Shown: positions 22,717-28,930 of the stretch, piece after piece
Position numbering within the stretch: position 1 is the stretch's first letter
Layout: each line of letters begins with the position of its first letter
Assembly (NCBI GenBank): GCA_038061695.1
Contig: JBBTYT010000001.1
Coordinates: 1,339 to 65,338, forward strand
DNA length: 64,000 nt
Reading direction: 5' to 3'
DNA from: Patescibacteria group bacterium
GTDB taxonomy: Bacteria > Patescibacteriota > Minisyncoccia > GWC2-36-17 > M10-OD1-4
The notes under the pieces: generated by a model
The model's database searches: none
The model's input: the letters and a program-made list of their open reading frames with translations, nothing else
What the model was told of the DNA's origin: nothing
Program-made: the position numbers and the translations under genes

Positions 22717-22789
22717 AGCGGGGTAGAGGAGCTGGTACCTCGTCGGTCTCATAAGCCGAAGGTCGTGGGTTCGAATCCCGCCCCCGCAA
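22717..22789 (+). tRNA. tRNA with CAT anticodon, possibly initiator-like because the acceptor stem appears to have an unpaired 1:72 position
   Basis: Cloverleaf by eye: D-stem GAGG/CCTC, anticodon loop CTCATAA, T-loop TTCGAAT, acceptor xGCGGGG/CCCCGCx with discriminator A. Confidence 0.6.
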
Positions 22790-22821
22790 CAAAGTTTGGT
22801 ATGGTTTTTTCCAGTGATTAC

Positions 22822-22895
22822 GCCAGGGTAGCTCAGTTGGTTAGAGCACAGGACTCATAAGCCTGGGGTCGTGGGTTCGAATCCCACCTCTGGTA
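22822..22895 (+). tRNA. tRNA with CAT anticodon (elongator Met or lysidine-modified Ile2)
   Basis: GCCAGGG-T-A-GCTCAGTTGGTTAGAGC...CTCATAA...GTGGGTTCGAATCCCAC-CTCTGGT-A. Identity cannot be settled from sequence alone. Confidence 0.65.
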
Positions 22896-22917
22896 CCGAA
22901 ACTTTATAATTTTTTTT

Positions 22918-22995
22918 GGGGCCGTGGTCTAGCCCGGTTATGACGTCTCCCTGTCACGGAGAAGATCGCCGGTTCAAATCCGGTCGGCCCCGCCA
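22918..22995 (+). tRNA. tRNA-Asp (GTC) with genomically encoded CCA
   Basis: Acceptor GGGGCCG/CGGCCCC, anticodon loop CTGTCAC, T-loop TTCAAAT, discriminator G plus CCA. Minus-strand ORF 22904-23200 overlapping it is spurious. Confidence 0.8.
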
Positions 22996-23119
22996 GATTT
23001 CTAAGTTTGAACCCCGATAAAATAAGGGGTTTTGATGATTTAGAAACCGTTATCCGAACGAGGCGCCGGTTTTTCTTAATCCTTATCAAAGGAGTAAAAT
23101 TTTGATATAATAAAATTAT

Positions 23120-25462
23120 ATGGCAAACGAAAGAAAAACCGAAATAATCACAAGAGATCACTTTTCCAATTTTTTGGATTCTATTTATATTGAAGAACAA
23201 CGCTCAGATAATCCAAAAATTGATAAGTTGTTAAAATCCGCCTCAAAAAAAGGCGGTGGAAAAGGTTATCCTGAATTTATCATTAGCTATAAAACCAATC
23301 CTGATTTATTGATTGTTGTTGAATGTAAAGCAGATGTAACCAAACATGAAAGCAAAGATCGTGATAAATATTCAGAATTTGCGGTTGATGGTGCTTTACT
23401 TTATGCCTCCTATCTCTCTAAGGGTTTTGATGTTTTGGCAATCGCAGTTAGTGGAGAAACAAAACAATCATTAAAAGTTTCTCACTTTTTGCATTTAAGA
23501 AATGAGAAAAAAGCGACCCCAATTTTCGGAGATAAATTTTTACCTGTTGATGATTATTTGAATGGATATTTGAAAAGTCCTGAAAAATTCAGACAAGACT
23601 ATATCTCCCTTTTGGATTTTACAAAACAGCTTAATGAAAAACTACATACCTATAAGATTCTTGAAAGTCAAAGAAGTTTGCTTATCAGCTCAATTTTAAT
23701 TGCTTTAGAAAATCCTGCATTTAAAAGATCGTATGCTTCGCACACTAGACCAGAAGACTTAGCTTCTTCTCTTATACAAACAGTTTTAAGTGAATTAGAA
23801 AAGGCAAATATTACTGGTAAAAAATTAGAAAATTTAAATACACAATTTAGTTTTATAAAAACTGACACTTCTTTATCAAAAAAAGAAAATATTTTGAAAG
23901 AAATTATTGACGAAATTGACGAAAATATAAATATTTTTATTAAAACTCACAAATATTTTGATGTATTAGGACAGCTCTATATTGAATTTTTGAGATACGC
24001 AAACAGCGATAAAGGTTTAGGAATTGTTTTAACACCTCCGCATATTACAGAACTTTTTGCAGATTTGGCACAAGTAAATAAAAACTCTATTGCCTACGAT
24101 AATTGTACTGGAACAGGCGGATTTTTGATTAGTGCAATGAAAAGAATGATCGCAGATGCAAAAGGTGATGAAACAAAAATTAAAGAAATAAAATCAAAAC
24201 AGCTTATTGGAACGGAATATCAATCACATATTTTCGCTTTGGCGGTTTCTAATATGTATATCCATCAAGATGGAAAAACGAATATCATAAATGGAAGCTG
24301 TTTTGATGAGGAAGTTATTGAAGAAGTTAAATCAAGAAAACCAACAGTTGGATTTTTAAACCCGCCTTACAAATCAAATAAAAAAACAGATACTGATGAA
24401 TTAGAATTTATACTAAACAACTTAGAGTGTTTAGTTGACGGAGGAACTTGTGTTGCGATTGTACCAATGAGTAGTGCTTTAGCGATGAAAGGGAAAACCT
24501 ACGAAATTAAAAAGGAATTATTAAAAAAGCATACATTAGAAGCAGTATTATCAATGCCTAATGATTTATTTATTGATTCTGATGTTGGTACAGTTACTTG
24601 TATTATGGTTTTCACTGCTCATAAACCACATTTTCAAGGAAAAAAAACATTTTTTGGATATTTTAAAAATGATGGATTTGAGAAAAGAAGAAAAGGAAGA
24701 ATTGAAATTAATTGTCAATGGAAAGATATAAAAAATGAATGGCTAAAGGCATATTTAAACAAAGCCAATATTCCTGATTTAAGTATTAATATAGAAGTAA
24801 CGGCAAATAATGAATGGTGCCCAGAAGCATACTTAATTACAGATTTTACAAAAATAAATAATAATAATTTTATTAAAAATCTAAAAGAACATTGTATTTA
24901 TTTGTTTAATAACGATCTATCAAAAAATATTTCCAATAATCCTTTGGTGCAAAAAGAAATAAATATAAATTTTCAAAATTGGCAAAGGTTCAAGGTTAAA
25001 GATTTCTTCAAGGTTTATTCTGGTGGTGATAAACCAAAATCAGATGATTCAAAACATTGGAATGGTGAGATTGTTAATTCAGTAGAAAATCAAACAACAA
25101 ACAATGGAATAAAAGAAAAAATAGAATTTGCCGATGAAAATAAGATTTTTGAAAATTTTATTTCAGTTGTTTCTATCGGAGAAGGAGGTAAGGCATTTTA
25201 TCAACCAGAAAAAGGCGCTTGTTTTACTCGTGTTAAAGTCCTTGTTCCAATTAAGCAATGCAAAAATAATTTTAATAAATATCTCTTTCTGTTTTTTTGC
25301 TCCTTACTTGATATGGAAAGATATAGATATGGCTATGGCAGAGTTCTTAGCAAAGATAGATTGGGAGAAACGGAGTTATTAATACCAACAAAGAACAATT
25401 TACCAGATTGGGAATTTATGGAAAATTATATTAAATCATTGCCCTATTCTTCAAGTCTCTAA
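23120..25462 (+). CDS. Single-polypeptide restriction-modification enzyme, Type IIG-like: N-terminal PD-ExK nuclease, gamma-class N6-adenine methyltransferase and a C-terminal specificity region
   Basis: NPDLLIVVECK is a PD-x5-ExK motif. MTase motif I DNCTGTGGFLISA and motif IV FLNPPYK. The C-terminal region resembles a target-recognition domain. 780 aa. Confidence 0.6.
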   Translation: MANERKTEIITRDHFSNFLDSIYIEEQRSDNPKIDKLLKSASKKGGGKGYPEFIISYKTNPDLLIVVECKADVTKHESKDRDKYSEFAVDGALLYASYLSKGFDVLAIAVSGETKQSLKVSHFLHLRNEKKATPIFGDKFLPVDDYLNGYLKSPEKFRQDYISLLDFTKQLNEKLHTYKILESQRSLLISSILIALENPAFKRSYASHTRPEDLASSLIQTVLSELEKANITGKKLENLNTQFSFIKTDTSLSKKENILKEIIDEIDENINIFIKTHKYFDVLGQLYIEFLRYANSDKGLGIVLTPPHITELFADLAQVNKNSIAYDNCTGTGGFLISAMKRMIADAKGDETKIKEIKSKQLIGTEYQSHIFALAVSNMYIHQDGKTNIINGSCFDEEVIEEVKSRKPTVGFLNPPYKSNKKTDTDELEFILNNLECLVDGGTCVAIVPMSSALAMKGKTYEIKKELLKKHTLEAVLSMPNDLFIDSDVGTVTCIMVFTAHKPHFQGKKTFFGYFKNDGFEKRRKGRIEINCQWKDIKNEWLKAYLNKANIPDLSINIEVTANNEWCPEAYLITDFTKINNNNFIKNLKEHCIYLFNNDLSKNISNNPLVQKEININFQNWQRFKVKDFFKVYSGGDKPKSDDSKHWNGEIVNSVENQTTNNGIKEKIEFADENKIFENFISVVSIGEGGKAFYQPEKGACFTRVKVLVPIKQCKNNFNKYLFLFFCSLLDMERYRYGYGRVLSKDRLGETELLIPTKNNLPDWEFMENYIKSLPYSSSL

Positions 25463-25711: not shown

Positions 25712-26053
25712 AGATTTAATCCATTACTTTTTGTTAATTAATAGAGAGTCGACCTTTACGCTTACTCCCCACCCCAAAAACTAAAAGTTCCTAGGGAGGA
25801 GAGGTAAAGGCGACTTGATCTAATAACCACGAAAAGGTCCCTGAGGTATCCCGCCAGCTTTTCAAGGAGCTAATAATTACAATTTACGCTTTTTGAATTA
25901 TGGAGTCAAGATTAAGATATAAAATAATCCACCTCATTTTTACCCCTATTAGACTCTGGACGAGGCGTTTCAAACCATTCAGGATGAACTTTGTACATTA
26001 CCCTTAATTCGCTATACTTTTATCAATATCTTCGAATTTGAGCCACTTTCTAG

Positions 26054-26100
26054 GTTCAAAGTTCCGGAGATCGGCCCAGCCATATTTTTAAGTTTGAACC
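26054..26100 (+). repeat. Degenerate direct repeat of the tRNA-Asp 3' end plus downstream flank (putative attR of an integrated element)
   Basis: GGTTCAAAGTTCCGGAGATCGGCCCAGCCATATTTTTAAGTTTGAACC versus tRNA-Asp 22971-23013 GGTTCAAATCCGGTCGGCCCCGCCAGATTTCTAAGTTTGAACC. About 40 of 43 positions align with two small indels, including 12 identical terminal bases TAAGTTTGAACC. Confidence 0.6.
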
Positions 26101-26302
26101 GTAATGATTACAAGACTTAATGAAAGGAAGTTTTTTGAGCTTTCAGTGATGTATTCTCAACATAACAGAGCACGGATTGGTCGCGCTTTTTATTGCGACC
26201 ATTGACTTTTGCTTTAATAAATACTATTATGTTAAGTCATGATTCGGCATGTTGTTGGTCAGGTGGTCTGTTCATTCAAAACAAAATAAGGAGTGTGTTA
26301 TT

Positions 26303-26680
26303 ATGGTAAAGAAAATTTTGGTGCTGTTTCGAGATAAATTTTTTCACTGGAGGATATCTGATATGCTTAGACAAAATTATGGTCAATATACCTCAATAGA
26401 GAATGGAATTTGTTCTTTTCTTTACAACTCAAAAAACGCGTTGGATATCGTAGAAAGATTTAAAAAAGGAGGCTATGACTATCTGGTGATTATGGGTTCG
26501 TTCCAGATGAGTGATGTGTTCTGTAAAAATGGTATCAGAGTGTTGTGGCCGGAATGGGTCAAGGAAGATGATCATTCTAAAATTGAGTTTTATGATATGC
26601 ACGCCAGGCAAGGTTACCGGCTCGTTCGGTTTCGTCAGATTAAGAGTTTCACTAATGATACTCTAGAATTTGAGGATTGA
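26303..26680 (+). CDS. Hypothetical protein (island gene)
   Basis: Start chosen at the internal ATG with SD TAAGGAG 8 nt upstream (track ORF begins 26249). TTGACT-N17-TATTAT promoter-like site at about 26197-26225, preceded by a TGGTCGC/GCGACCA inverted repeat. Confidence 0.45.
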   Translation: MVKKILVLFRDKFFHWRISDMLRQNYGQYTSIENGICSFLYNSKNALDIVERFKKGGYDYLVIMGSFQMSDVFCKNGIRVLWPEWVKEDDHSKIEFYDMHARQGYRLVRFRQIKSFTNDTLEFED

Positions 26681-26767
26681 TTCATTTGGTGTTTCGGCAC
26701 CTTCACAGAATGGATATGATCGCCGAAACGATCGTGTCAGTAATGCATAAAATGAAAGGAGATCAAG

Positions 26768-27127
26768 ATGGAATACGATGAAGTCCTCAAACTGGCAATG
26801 AAGCTCGGAAAGGAGCGTCATCCGGAAGCTCCTCAACACCATCACGCGGCCTTTGTCAACTCAGTGCAGACTCTTGTTACTGGTTGGAGTGGAGGCTTCG
26901 GCGGTCCGTCCATGCGTGAGCACTGGGCGTGCCGAGTTGCCAAAGCCAAGGACACAGTCGGACAGTTCAGCTTCGACGATGCGGTGACGGCGGTTGAGGA
27001 AGCCTGTTACGGCCAACTCACCCTCGATCACGCGAACATGCTCGAAGAGGAGCACTGCTTCGATGATGCTCCTGGTGAAGTGGAGACGGCACAGTGGCTT
27101 CTGGCGATGCACCATCAGCACGATTGA
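26768..27127 (+). CDS. Hypothetical protein, conspicuously G+C-rich foreign ORF
   Basis: SD AAAGGAG upstream; His/Glu-rich product. Followed by hairpin terminator GGCACGTTTT-CCCA-AAAACGTGCC plus T-run (27154-27188). Overlapping minus ORF 26861-27193 and plus ORF 26994-27221 rejected. Confidence 0.5.
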   Translation: MEYDEVLKLAMKLGKERHPEAPQHHHAAFVNSVQTLVTGWSGGFGGPSMREHWACRVAKAKDTVGQFSFDDAVTAVEEACYGQLTLDHANMLEEEHCFDDAPGEVETAQWLLAMHHQHD

Positions 27128-27339: not shown

Positions 27340-28761
27340 ATGAAAAAGATCGTCTTTTATTCTTGGCAGTCAGATTTACCTAACGGTACAAATCGTAATC
27401 TTATCGAAGGTGTTTTAAAGGATGTTGCCAAAGAAATAGGAAGTGATGAAGATACTAATATCGAGCATGTTATCGACAGGGATACTCAAGGTGTAGCCGG
27501 TGCGCCGAATATTGCAACAGCTATTTTCCAAAAAATTGATTCGGCAGATATTTTTGTCGCTGATGTATCAATAATTGGAAGTGCGAAAAAACGCGCAGTA
27601 CCTAATCCAAATGTTTTAATTGAATTAGGATATGCTCTTAAATCTTTAGGACACGAACGTATTATATTGGTTTTTAATACTGCGTTTGGAAAAATTGAAA
27701 AATTACCATTTGATCTAAGAATGCATAGAACTCTTACTTACCAATGTGCTGAGTCGGTTACAGATCGCACAGAAATAAAGAAAGGTTTAATTAGAGATTT
27801 CAGATTAGCTCTTTTAGCGGGATTTTCTCATGTAACTCCTAAAAAAGTCACAACACCTATAATTGATATCATCAAAAATAGAACGGCGAGTAAAAAAATT
27901 GACCTCAGGGCATATTTAGATGAATTATATAATGAATTGTGGAAATTACAGCCACCTATGAAAAGAGATGGCGGTACTGTACAAGATTTGTTATCTGCTC
28001 TACCAAAAACCGAAAAAATATCTGCCAAATTTGCAAAACTTTCACAGACCATCGTTTTAATGAACGATAAAGAATCATCAAGAGAAGTATTTCAATGGTT
28101 CGGTAAGTTGTTAACGAATTACGATCCAATACTAAAAGGCGATGGTAAAATATGGAACTGTGATGGAGATTTTTTTAAATTTATAGGGCATGATCTTTTT
28201 GTAAATTTTATAAATCCTTTTCTGCGAGAAGAAAAATGGGATGAAATAAAAGAACTTTTAAAAGGAATTTTATCAGTTGGGCCAACATCGTATAGCCAAA
28301 ACGATCGAAAGGAATCTTGGACAGAGTTATCCAAACATTCTCCGCTTTTAATAGATGAAGGGAAAACTAATCGCCGTGTATCTTTCCATGCCGATTTATT
28401 AAAAACCAGACACGAAAAAGGTGAATTAGCTTCCATCGTACCTTTTAAGGAATTTACTGAAACAGATTTTTTTCTCCATTTATATGGCGAAGGGATAACA
28501 CAAGATAACAAATATTACGGTAAATGGTATCCGAGAAGTGATATCTGGCTTCAGCATACTCCAAAATTTATATCTGAAGCTACTGATTATCCAACCGCCA
28601 TGAAGATATGCAATGCTCTACAAATAAGTGATGTCGAAGAATTTAAAAGACGGCTGGCACATACACAAATTAAATGGGATTGGCATTCCCCAGTTAGCGC
28701 AGCAGATATTAATAAAATTGGGAGTACTGGTGGTGCTGTTATTATTAAAATAGATGAATAA
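27340..28761 (+). CDS. TIR-like (ThsB/DUF1863-like, nucleoside 2-deoxyribosyltransferase fold) N-terminal domain fused to a roughly 300-aa C-terminal domain of unknown function; candidate anti-phage defense protein
   Basis: N-terminus KIVFYSWQSD parallels the ThsB-type RVFFSFHYQD start. ADIFVADVS and NPNVLIELGYALKSLGHERIILVFN carry the conserved Glu of the TIR/NDT superfamily. No motif recognised in residues about 170-473. Promoter-like TTGACC-N17-TACAAT at about 27195-27225. Confidence 0.5.
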   Translation: MKKIVFYSWQSDLPNGTNRNLIEGVLKDVAKEIGSDEDTNIEHVIDRDTQGVAGAPNIATAIFQKIDSADIFVADVSIIGSAKKRAVPNPNVLIELGYALKSLGHERIILVFNTAFGKIEKLPFDLRMHRTLTYQCAESVTDRTEIKKGLIRDFRLALLAGFSHVTPKKVTTPIIDIIKNRTASKKIDLRAYLDELYNELWKLQPPMKRDGGTVQDLLSALPKTEKISAKFAKLSQTIVLMNDKESSREVFQWFGKLLTNYDPILKGDGKIWNCDGDFFKFIGHDLFVNFINPFLREEKWDEIKELLKGILSVGPTSYSQNDRKESWTELSKHSPLLIDEGKTNRRVSFHADLLKTRHEKGELASIVPFKEFTETDFFLHLYGEGITQDNKYYGKWYPRSDIWLQHTPKFISEATDYPTAMKICNALQISDVEEFKRRLAHTQIKWDWHSPVSAADINKIGSTGGAVIIKIDE

Positions 28762-28930
28762 ATATGAAAAAGAAAAAATTTGATATTATAAAATTTATAA
28801 GGGAGTTTGTGTAATCACAAAGATTAACACGCGCACGGGTGGGTGGGGCAAGTGTTGTATTTATGTAGCCGACCTCTCCTCCAAAAAATCTTCGGATTGA
28901 ACCTCTTCTTATAACCTCGCAATTAAGAAA

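Follow-up and report, generated by a model that had tools for sequence, protein, structure and literature searches.

A single-chain restriction-modification enzyme with one target-recognition domain, very probably of the BcgI family, beside a tRNA cluster of a Patescibacteria group bacterium

Introduction

Which kind of enzyme is encoded by the open reading frame (ORF) that starts 125 nucleotides (nt) beyond a tRNA-Met/tRNA-Met/tRNA-Asp cluster (22717-22995) in a 64-kb stretch of DNA from a Patescibacteria group bacterium (contig JBBTYT010000001.1; the whole stretch is hereafter called the window), and how would this enzyme recognize and cut its target? The ORF (23120..25462, + strand) is intact and encodes 780 amino acid residues (aa) plus a stop codon. 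An identical protein has been entered in the databases under the name 'MAG: N-6 DNA methylase [Patescibacteria group bacterium]' (MAG, metagenome-assembled genome), and this label, which is also given to hundreds of relatives in NCBI, masks a complete single-gene restriction system. An earlier note on this DNA places the gene directly downstream of the tRNA cluster, as is indeed the case, and describes the product as a fused nuclease-methyltransferase (MTase)-specificity polypeptide of the Type IIG kind, which agrees with the intact ORF and its domain composition. The assignment to the MmeI/BpuSI-type IIG/IIL subclass in the same note is not borne out. The protein is very probably a one-protein restriction-modification (R-M) enzyme that belongs to the BcgI family (Type IIB, alternatively classed as Type IIG/IIC), is ATP-independent and has a single target-recognition domain (TRD).

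Reviews of the Type IIB enzymes distinguish three primary forms. The BcgI form consists of a restriction and modification subunit (RM) and a specificity subunit (S) at a ratio of 2RM:1S, and the AloI form is a single RMS chain of ~1250 aa with two TRDs (PMC4081073, PMC3874165). Table S2 of the paper on the cryo-electron microscopy structure of BsaXI lists BcgI.RM (637 aa), BaeI.RM (626 aa), SdeOSI.RM (630 aa) and Bve1B23I.RM (614 aa) as 'RM, Type I-like', and HaeIV (953 aa) as 'RMS, TRD1' (PMC11997821). With R and M joined to no more than one TRD in its single chain, the window protein has the architecture of the single-TRD 'HaeIV form' of Type IIB.

Results

Module organization

The protein is a single-chain enzyme of the order R-M-half S, and its modules are arranged as follows.

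23120..23569, + strand: PD-(D/E)xK nuclease domain, aa 1-150, with the order alpha-beta-alpha-beta-beta-alpha-beta-beta
23570..23959, + strand: multi-helical connector from the nuclease to the MTase, aa 151-280 (helices at 154-276 in the AlphaFold2 (AF2) model; spanned by the PADLOC IIG models)
23960..24889, + strand: gamma-class N6-adenine MTase, aa 281-590 (Pfam N6_Mtase, HsdM structure matches, invariant motifs)
24890..24976, + strand: junction and linker, aa 591-619, where the part homologous to RM subunits (as far as ~aa 600) overlaps the beginning of the part homologous to the split S central linker (S aa ~147)
24977..25390, + strand: single HsdS-type TRD, aa 620-757, a variable, swappable module (Pfam Methylase_S, PADLOC Specificity_II, identity to TRD2 of split S, mosaic identity)
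25391..25462, + strand: conserved C-terminal tail LPDWEFMENYIKSLPYSSSL, aa 758-780, a putative dimerisation helix, with the motif in which both TRD halves of a split S or bcgIB-like subunit end

Four modules cover all 780 aa, and no ATP-dependent translocase/helicase domain is present. Pfam detects N6_Mtase at aa 281-589 (E 6e-28) and one Methylase_S at aa 620-772 (E 3e-16), with no match in the first ~280 aa, and NCBIfam has no specific family for the protein, only sub-threshold matches to PrmC and MADS. Of the REBASE-derived models of PADLOC, REase_MTase_IIG matches aa 26-598 (E 6.8e-160) and the 'Type II specificity subunit' model aa 610-772, and the Type IIG models outscore the Type I MTase models by ~120 orders of magnitude. 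A length of 780 aa is what a BcgI-type body joined to half an S subunit should have; the protein seems 'compact for the class', as the earlier note has it, only when MmeI or BpuSI is taken as the yardstick. The three sequence strings quoted in that note are all found in the ORF.

Nuclease domain and catalytic motif

The region of aa 1-150 was modelled separately, because the MTase dominates the full-length Foldseek search and the orientations of the domains give low template modelling (TM) scores. The separate model has a nuclease fold, so that the proposed N-terminal PD-(D/E)xK fold is supported by structure prediction. The catalytic motif is located at aa 51-70 (23270..23329, + strand) and reads P51-E52-X15-E68-C69-K70, or P51-(E/D)52-X15-E68-x-K70 across the family. 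In the model, P51-E52 is followed by the strand 53-57, and the strand 63-70 closes with E68-C-K70. The earlier note reads the motif as PD-x5-ExK with P61-D62 (NPDLLIVVECK), but these are the wrong residues: they are located in the hairpin between the two strands and are not conserved. Conservation was counted with 51 full-length representatives, whose nuclease domains are 39-65% identical to that of the query. P51, E68 and K70 are each found in 52/52 and position 52 is E (43) or D (9), whereas P61 is found in 18/52 and position 62 is D (22), N (17), E (6), Q (3), R (2) or K (1). The nuclease domain of the family is conserved as strongly as the MTase, and this, together with the invariance of P51, E/D52, E68 and K70, indicates selection on catalysis. 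The P51-E52...E68-C-K70 motif is aligned with PEF...VEDK of a protein annotated as bcgIA (described below). Mutation of Glu53 of BcgI to Ala abolishes cleavage (PMC3592470), and the alignment to this bcgIA-annotated proxy suggests that Glu53 of BcgI corresponds to E52 here, at a nearly equal position.

Methyltransferase domain

The MTase motifs are arranged in the order X (GIVLTPPHI, aa 301-309, with TPPH at 305-308), I (DNCTGTGGF, aa 327-335) and IV (NPPY, aa 414-417), and are invariant among relatives. This order and the Pfam N6_Mtase match bear out the gamma-class N6-adenine MTase proposed earlier. The MTase region ends with a C-terminal helix at aa 581-597. Its best matches in the PDB, both by sequence and by fold, are HsdM structures (2okc, 1e-10, and 5ybb; core-fold TM score (TMt) 0.61). 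When all PDB sequences, including those of BpuSI (3s1s), DrdV (7lo5) and BsaXI (8w0p), are searched with phmmer and with the family profile, only HsdM-type proteins are found at E<=1; MmeI, BpuSI, DrdV and BsaXI are not reached by these searches. The sequence segments that are most conserved in the MTase are aa 278-304 (23951-24031) and aa 362-396 (24203-24307), which comprise the surroundings of motif X and the stretch LIGTEYQSHIFALAVSNMYIHQDGKTN.

Split relatives and the fusion junction

Homologues of the protein fall into two length classes, ~771-796 aa with both N6_Mtase and Methylase_S, and ~611 aa with N6_Mtase only. The closest relatives belong to the ~611-aa class and are 83% identical to the first 77% of the query. 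In every contig examined, the gene for the 611-aa protein is followed by a Methylase_S gene for 322-333 aa, which it overlaps by 8-14 nt. These S genes encode two TRDs, and the gene order is that of the two-gene A+B layout of BcgI. The last 190 aa of the query and the second half of the split S can be aligned over their full length (S aa 147-331; 35% identity, E 4e-27), and the alignment takes in the C-terminal tail that ends with FMENYIKSLPYSSSL. The junction is sharp: the query is homologous to the split RM as far as ~aa 600, and from aa 596 onwards it is homologous to the linker in the centre of S. The junction and the alignments therefore indicate that the protein consists of RM[1-~600] and S[~147-331], with TRD1 missing. 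The C-terminal target-recognition domain of the earlier note is thus present as a single HsdS-type TRD, and with one Methylase_S domain per chain the fusion gives an RM:TRD ratio of 1:1.

A Staphylococcus phage record, in which the depositor annotated 'bcgIA' (630 aa) and 'bcgIB' (333 aa), was used as an independent anchor. The phage 'bcgIA' matches the PADLOC IIG model of 637 positions with 4e-240 and is 31% identical to aa 25-566 of the query (E 1e-60). The TRD of the query aligns with both halves of the phage 'bcgIB', each of which ends with PDxEFMExYIK.

The split-form RM and S genes are often trailed by an Abi_C (PF14355) gene (locus L001, 7840-8634; L002, 3158-3952; L006, 3203-3997), which suggests that RM-S-Abi is a recurrent three-gene defence cassette.

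Distribution and evolution of the family

When the nuclease domain is used as a profile in an exhaustive search, 810 clusters are obtained at 50% identity, of which 492 reach E<=1e-10. The top 150 contain the 51 full-length representatives, 24 of 581-659 aa and 27 of 771-811 aa, so that about half of the full-length members are fused; no length class near 1250 aa is seen among them. A genome scan detects relatives in 384 species-representative genomes, and the hosts include Patescibacteria, Bacteroidota, Campylobacterota, Desulfobacterota, Spirochaetota, Elusimicrobiota, DPANN and methanogenic archaea. The cultured strain Flavobacterium columnare ATCC 23463 carries an intact fused ORF of 772 aa. 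A MAG that is assigned to another phylum, Elusimicrobiota (JBDRIG010000006.1; locus L024, 3001-5343), carries a 780-aa copy that is 94% identical over the full length including the TRD, either by very recent horizontal transfer or by mis-binning. The fused homologues are solitary and lie in unrelated neighbourhoods, where neither the tRNA adjacency nor the DUF1508 neighbour described below is kept.

Identity along the chain is mosaic: some relatives are 93-95% identical in the nuclease and only 17-24% in the TRD, whereas others are 64% identical in the nuclease and 73-79% in the TRD. This result indicates exchange of TRDs, of which it is the classic pattern. In a tree of the catalytic body, which is crude as it was built on identity by the unweighted pair group method with arithmetic mean (UPGMA), the fused and split states switch at least 25 times, as compared with ~57 times with shuffled labels. 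The body of the query is nearer to split RM subunits (84-86%) than to most fused forms.

Genomic setting

Three further features are found around the gene.

22984..23013, + strand: left copy of an att-like direct repeat of 30 nt, formed by the last 12 nt of tRNA-Asp and 18 nt downstream
23083..23111, + strand: promoter-like site TTATCA-17-TATAAT with TG (extended -10), a match to the consensus only, which ends 9 nt before the ATG
26071..26100, + strand: right copy of the att-like repeat, identical at 27/30 positions (0 matches expected by chance)

The two copies of the repeat flank a 3.1-kb module that consists of just the RM gene and, convergent with it, a DUF1508 gene, and a degenerate remnant of a tRNA T-arm (~26053-26070) lies just upstream of the right copy. 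A repeat that brackets a module in this manner is the signature of tRNA-targeted site-specific integration, and the pair resembles attL/attR of a decayed or trans-mobilised islet. Acquisition of the gene by integration is thus partly supported by the sequence. No integrase is found in the island by Pfam, PADLOC and related scans, nor was a third att copy or a contig with an 'empty site' found. The claim that the gene is the first of a putative integrated element is therefore supported only in part, by the bracketing tRNA-Asp repeat. Contigs from other samples (Logan assemblies), which are 100% identical, end at ~22853-22963, ~25964-26063 and ~28824-28856. The left breaks are rejected as evidence for integration, as they fall inside the tRNA genes and are explained by shared k-mers. 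The right break (~28824-28856) lies outside any tRNA gene and may mark the place where a strain-variable island of 5.9 kb truly ends on the right.

The only AGGAG is located ~25 nt upstream of the ATG. Given this position and that of the promoter-like site, the mRNA may be leaderless or nearly so.

The DUF1508 ORF (25711-25526, minus strand) is preceded by a long near-perfect hairpin (25735-25829, minus strand) with a minimum free energy of -44.6 kcal/mol as RNA (z = -6.1 versus shuffles). Rfam gives no match in the island beyond the three tRNAs and hence no family for the hairpin, which could be a 5' leader structure of DUF1508 or a bidirectional terminator. Two ORFs of 143 and 119 aa at 26249-27127 have a GC content of 0.48-0.51, as compared with ~0.31 in the background, and no match in Pfam, NCBIfam, PHROGs and PADLOC; this patch suggests foreign DNA of an origin other than that of the RM gene. 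A 473-aa protein is encoded at 27340-28761. Its aa ~52-145 bear a weak resemblance to TIR (Pfam CAP12/Pycsar effector TIR, 3e-4, below the cutoff; PADLOC TIR effector, 2e-6), its C-terminal part matches a PHROG of unknown function (5e-17), and it may be a second defence gene of the same islet. The high-GC patch and the TIR-like protein give the region as far as pheS (29354) the look of a small, composite islet of defence genes.

Discussion

Proposed mechanism

S subunits with a single TRD form homodimers that read palindromic bipartite sites, such as TCA N8 TGA for EcoDXXI deltaC, GAA N7 TTC for EcoR124I delta50 and AAG N5 CTT for TRD3 of H. pylori (PMC3874165, PMC3936762). As BcgI has one RM per TRD, a homodimer of the window protein would therefore rebuild its (RM)2S unit, with the stoichiometry of BcgI A2B. 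Two chains would pair through the conserved C-terminal elements, and the pair would contain two nucleases, two MTases and two identical TRDs. Because these TRDs would be identical and inverted, the target is expected to be symmetric and bipartite, that is, a half-site, an N5-7 spacer and the complementary half-site. Each half-site would carry one methylated adenine, the two being on opposite strands, so that both strands would be modified and no separate MTase would be needed. Unmodified DNA would be cut on both flanks of the target at fixed distances, probably only after two sites have been bridged, by analogy with BcgI; cleavage would require Mg2+ and methylation S-adenosylmethionine (SAM). 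Architecture and analogy make this dimer, symmetric-site, double-cut mechanism fairly probable, and the full explanation, in which a BcgI-family fusion acts by it, is favoured with good confidence.

Alternative explanations

The main alternative is that the protein is an enzyme of the MmeI/BpuSI type, which acts as a monomer, recognizes a continuous asymmetric site, hemi-methylates it and cuts on one side at a fixed distance. This is unlikely, because HsdM alone is reached when the PDB is searched by sequence or by profile, the nearest relatives are a split RM with a two-TRD S, and the TRD of ~140 aa is an HsdS half that is homologous to both bcgIB-like halves and keeps their terminal motif. 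Moreover, the 3-4-bp half-site of a monomer would occur very often, and modification of one strand would leave the host unprotected after replication. Another possibility is that the protein is an MTase only, with a vestigial or silenced nuclease, and acts as an MTase of the orphan or epigenetic kind that carries its own specificity. Its database name would fit, and BcgI-like systems are inactive in some hosts, such as H. pylori (PMC3936762), but the nuclease is conserved like the MTase with its four motif positions invariant in the family, the ORF is intact, and homologues are intact across many phyla; this explanation is quite improbable. It is more improbable still that the protein is a Type I-like M-S fusion partnered by an HsdR translocase whose gene lies at another place in the genome. 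The HsdM structures are its best sequence matches and the nearest fold to its MTase core, as such a fusion would lead one to expect. However, the protein bears its own PD-(D/E)xK nuclease, the PADLOC IIG models far outscore those of Type I MTases, and no HsdR- or HsdS-like sequence is found in the window or beside the fused homologues. No other R-, M- or S-like sequence is found elsewhere in the window, in agreement with the earlier note, which regards HsdM best hits together with a separate HsdR/HsdS nearby as evidence against its reading.

Several points weigh against the BcgI-family explanation and its dimer mechanism. The top full-length Foldseek match by E-value is the monomeric BpuSI, and BsaXI stands lower in the list. 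Homology to BcgI was tested only through the depositor-annotated 'bcgIA/bcgIB' and length-matched PADLOC models. The C-terminal helix is short in the model (aa 764-772), so that a rigid dimer is putative, and pairing of the chains, symmetry of the site and cleavage on its two sides are proposed from architecture and analogy. The AF2 model has low confidence at aa 278-304 and 362-396 of the MTase (predicted local distance difference test, pLDDT, <50), which may represent either disorder in the absence of SAM or DNA or an artefact of a shallow alignment. Finally, no biochemical or methylome record was found for the protein or its close relatives.

Significance

Defence inventories of Patescibacteria (candidate phyla radiation, CPR) hinge on correct calls of such genes. 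With one RM and one TRD in cis, the family is a simple stoichiometric model that could help to explain the four cuts around a Type IIB site, a mechanism that continues to be disputed for BcgI, TstI and BsaXI. The natural swapping of TRDs points to a source of programmable Type IIB enzymes with symmetric sites, of the kind that 2b-RAD employs. It is a tentative and rather doubtful proposal that the ~780-aa proteins with a BcgI-type body and one fused TRD form a distinct, biochemically uncharacterised subclass of Type IIB, the minimal self-contained one, which arises and reverts by repeated fusion and fission with split RM+S operons and may underlie AlfI (GCA N6 TGC) and BdaI (TGA N6 TCA). These two commercial enzymes have symmetric sites and the 10/12 geometry of BcgI, and their sequences are not public. 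If this proposal is true, the family is a large pool of single-gene Type IIB cutters with swappable TRDs. Nothing reported here is surprising to specialists in restriction enzymes.

Comparison with known systems

The window protein is most like BcgI (BcgI.RM, 637 aa, and BcgIB, 341 aa) and the other two-subunit Type IIB enzymes BaeI, SdeOSI and Bve1B23I. It shares with them the RM body, in the order nuclease, connector, MTase and C-terminal helix, the TRD type and terminal motif of a small BcgIB-like S, the lack of a translocase and the presence of one RM per TRD. Unlike these systems, it has the second half of S fused to RM, in one gene instead of two, and its two TRDs per unit would be identical, so that a symmetric rather than an asymmetric bipartite site is predicted. 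The single-chain RMS enzymes AloI, CjeI, TstI and PpiI (~1250-1300 aa) also carry R, M and S in one polypeptide and have swappable TRDs, but they have a TRD1-CR1-TRD2-CR2 arrangement (1 RM : 2 TRD), a 'knob' domain and asymmetric sites, whereas the window protein has 1 RM : 1 TRD. MmeI, BpuSI and DrdV (IIG/IIL) differ in that they have larger and different TRDs and C-terminal regions, are monomeric, recognize continuous asymmetric sites of 5-7 bp and cut on one side, and a separate S with two TRDs is not known to occur among their relatives. Half HsdS proteins and 'Type 1 1/2' MTases (M.AhdI, M.DrdI; EcoDXXI deltaC, EcoR124I delta50) provide the likeness for the C-terminal part, in which one TRD with a conserved helix homodimerises and reads a palindromic bipartite site, but these MTases and components of Type I systems have no fixed-distance nuclease fused to them.

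A search of the available literature gave no characterised enzyme that has exactly a BcgI-type body and a single TRD. HaeIV of Haemophilus aegyptius (953 aa; 7/13 GAY N5 RTC 14/9), to which the window protein is likened by its architecture of a single chain with a single TRD, is the only sequenced and characterised Type IIB entry given in this form (PMC11997821, Table S2). HaeIV is a homodimer that recognizes a symmetric bipartite site, cuts on both sides and needs no separate MTase. It is 173 aa longer than the window protein, the body of which is of the ~600-aa BcgI type. With this BcgI-type body joined to a HaeIV-type single TRD, the window protein is a new, and otherwise ordinary, member of a widespread anti-phage family.
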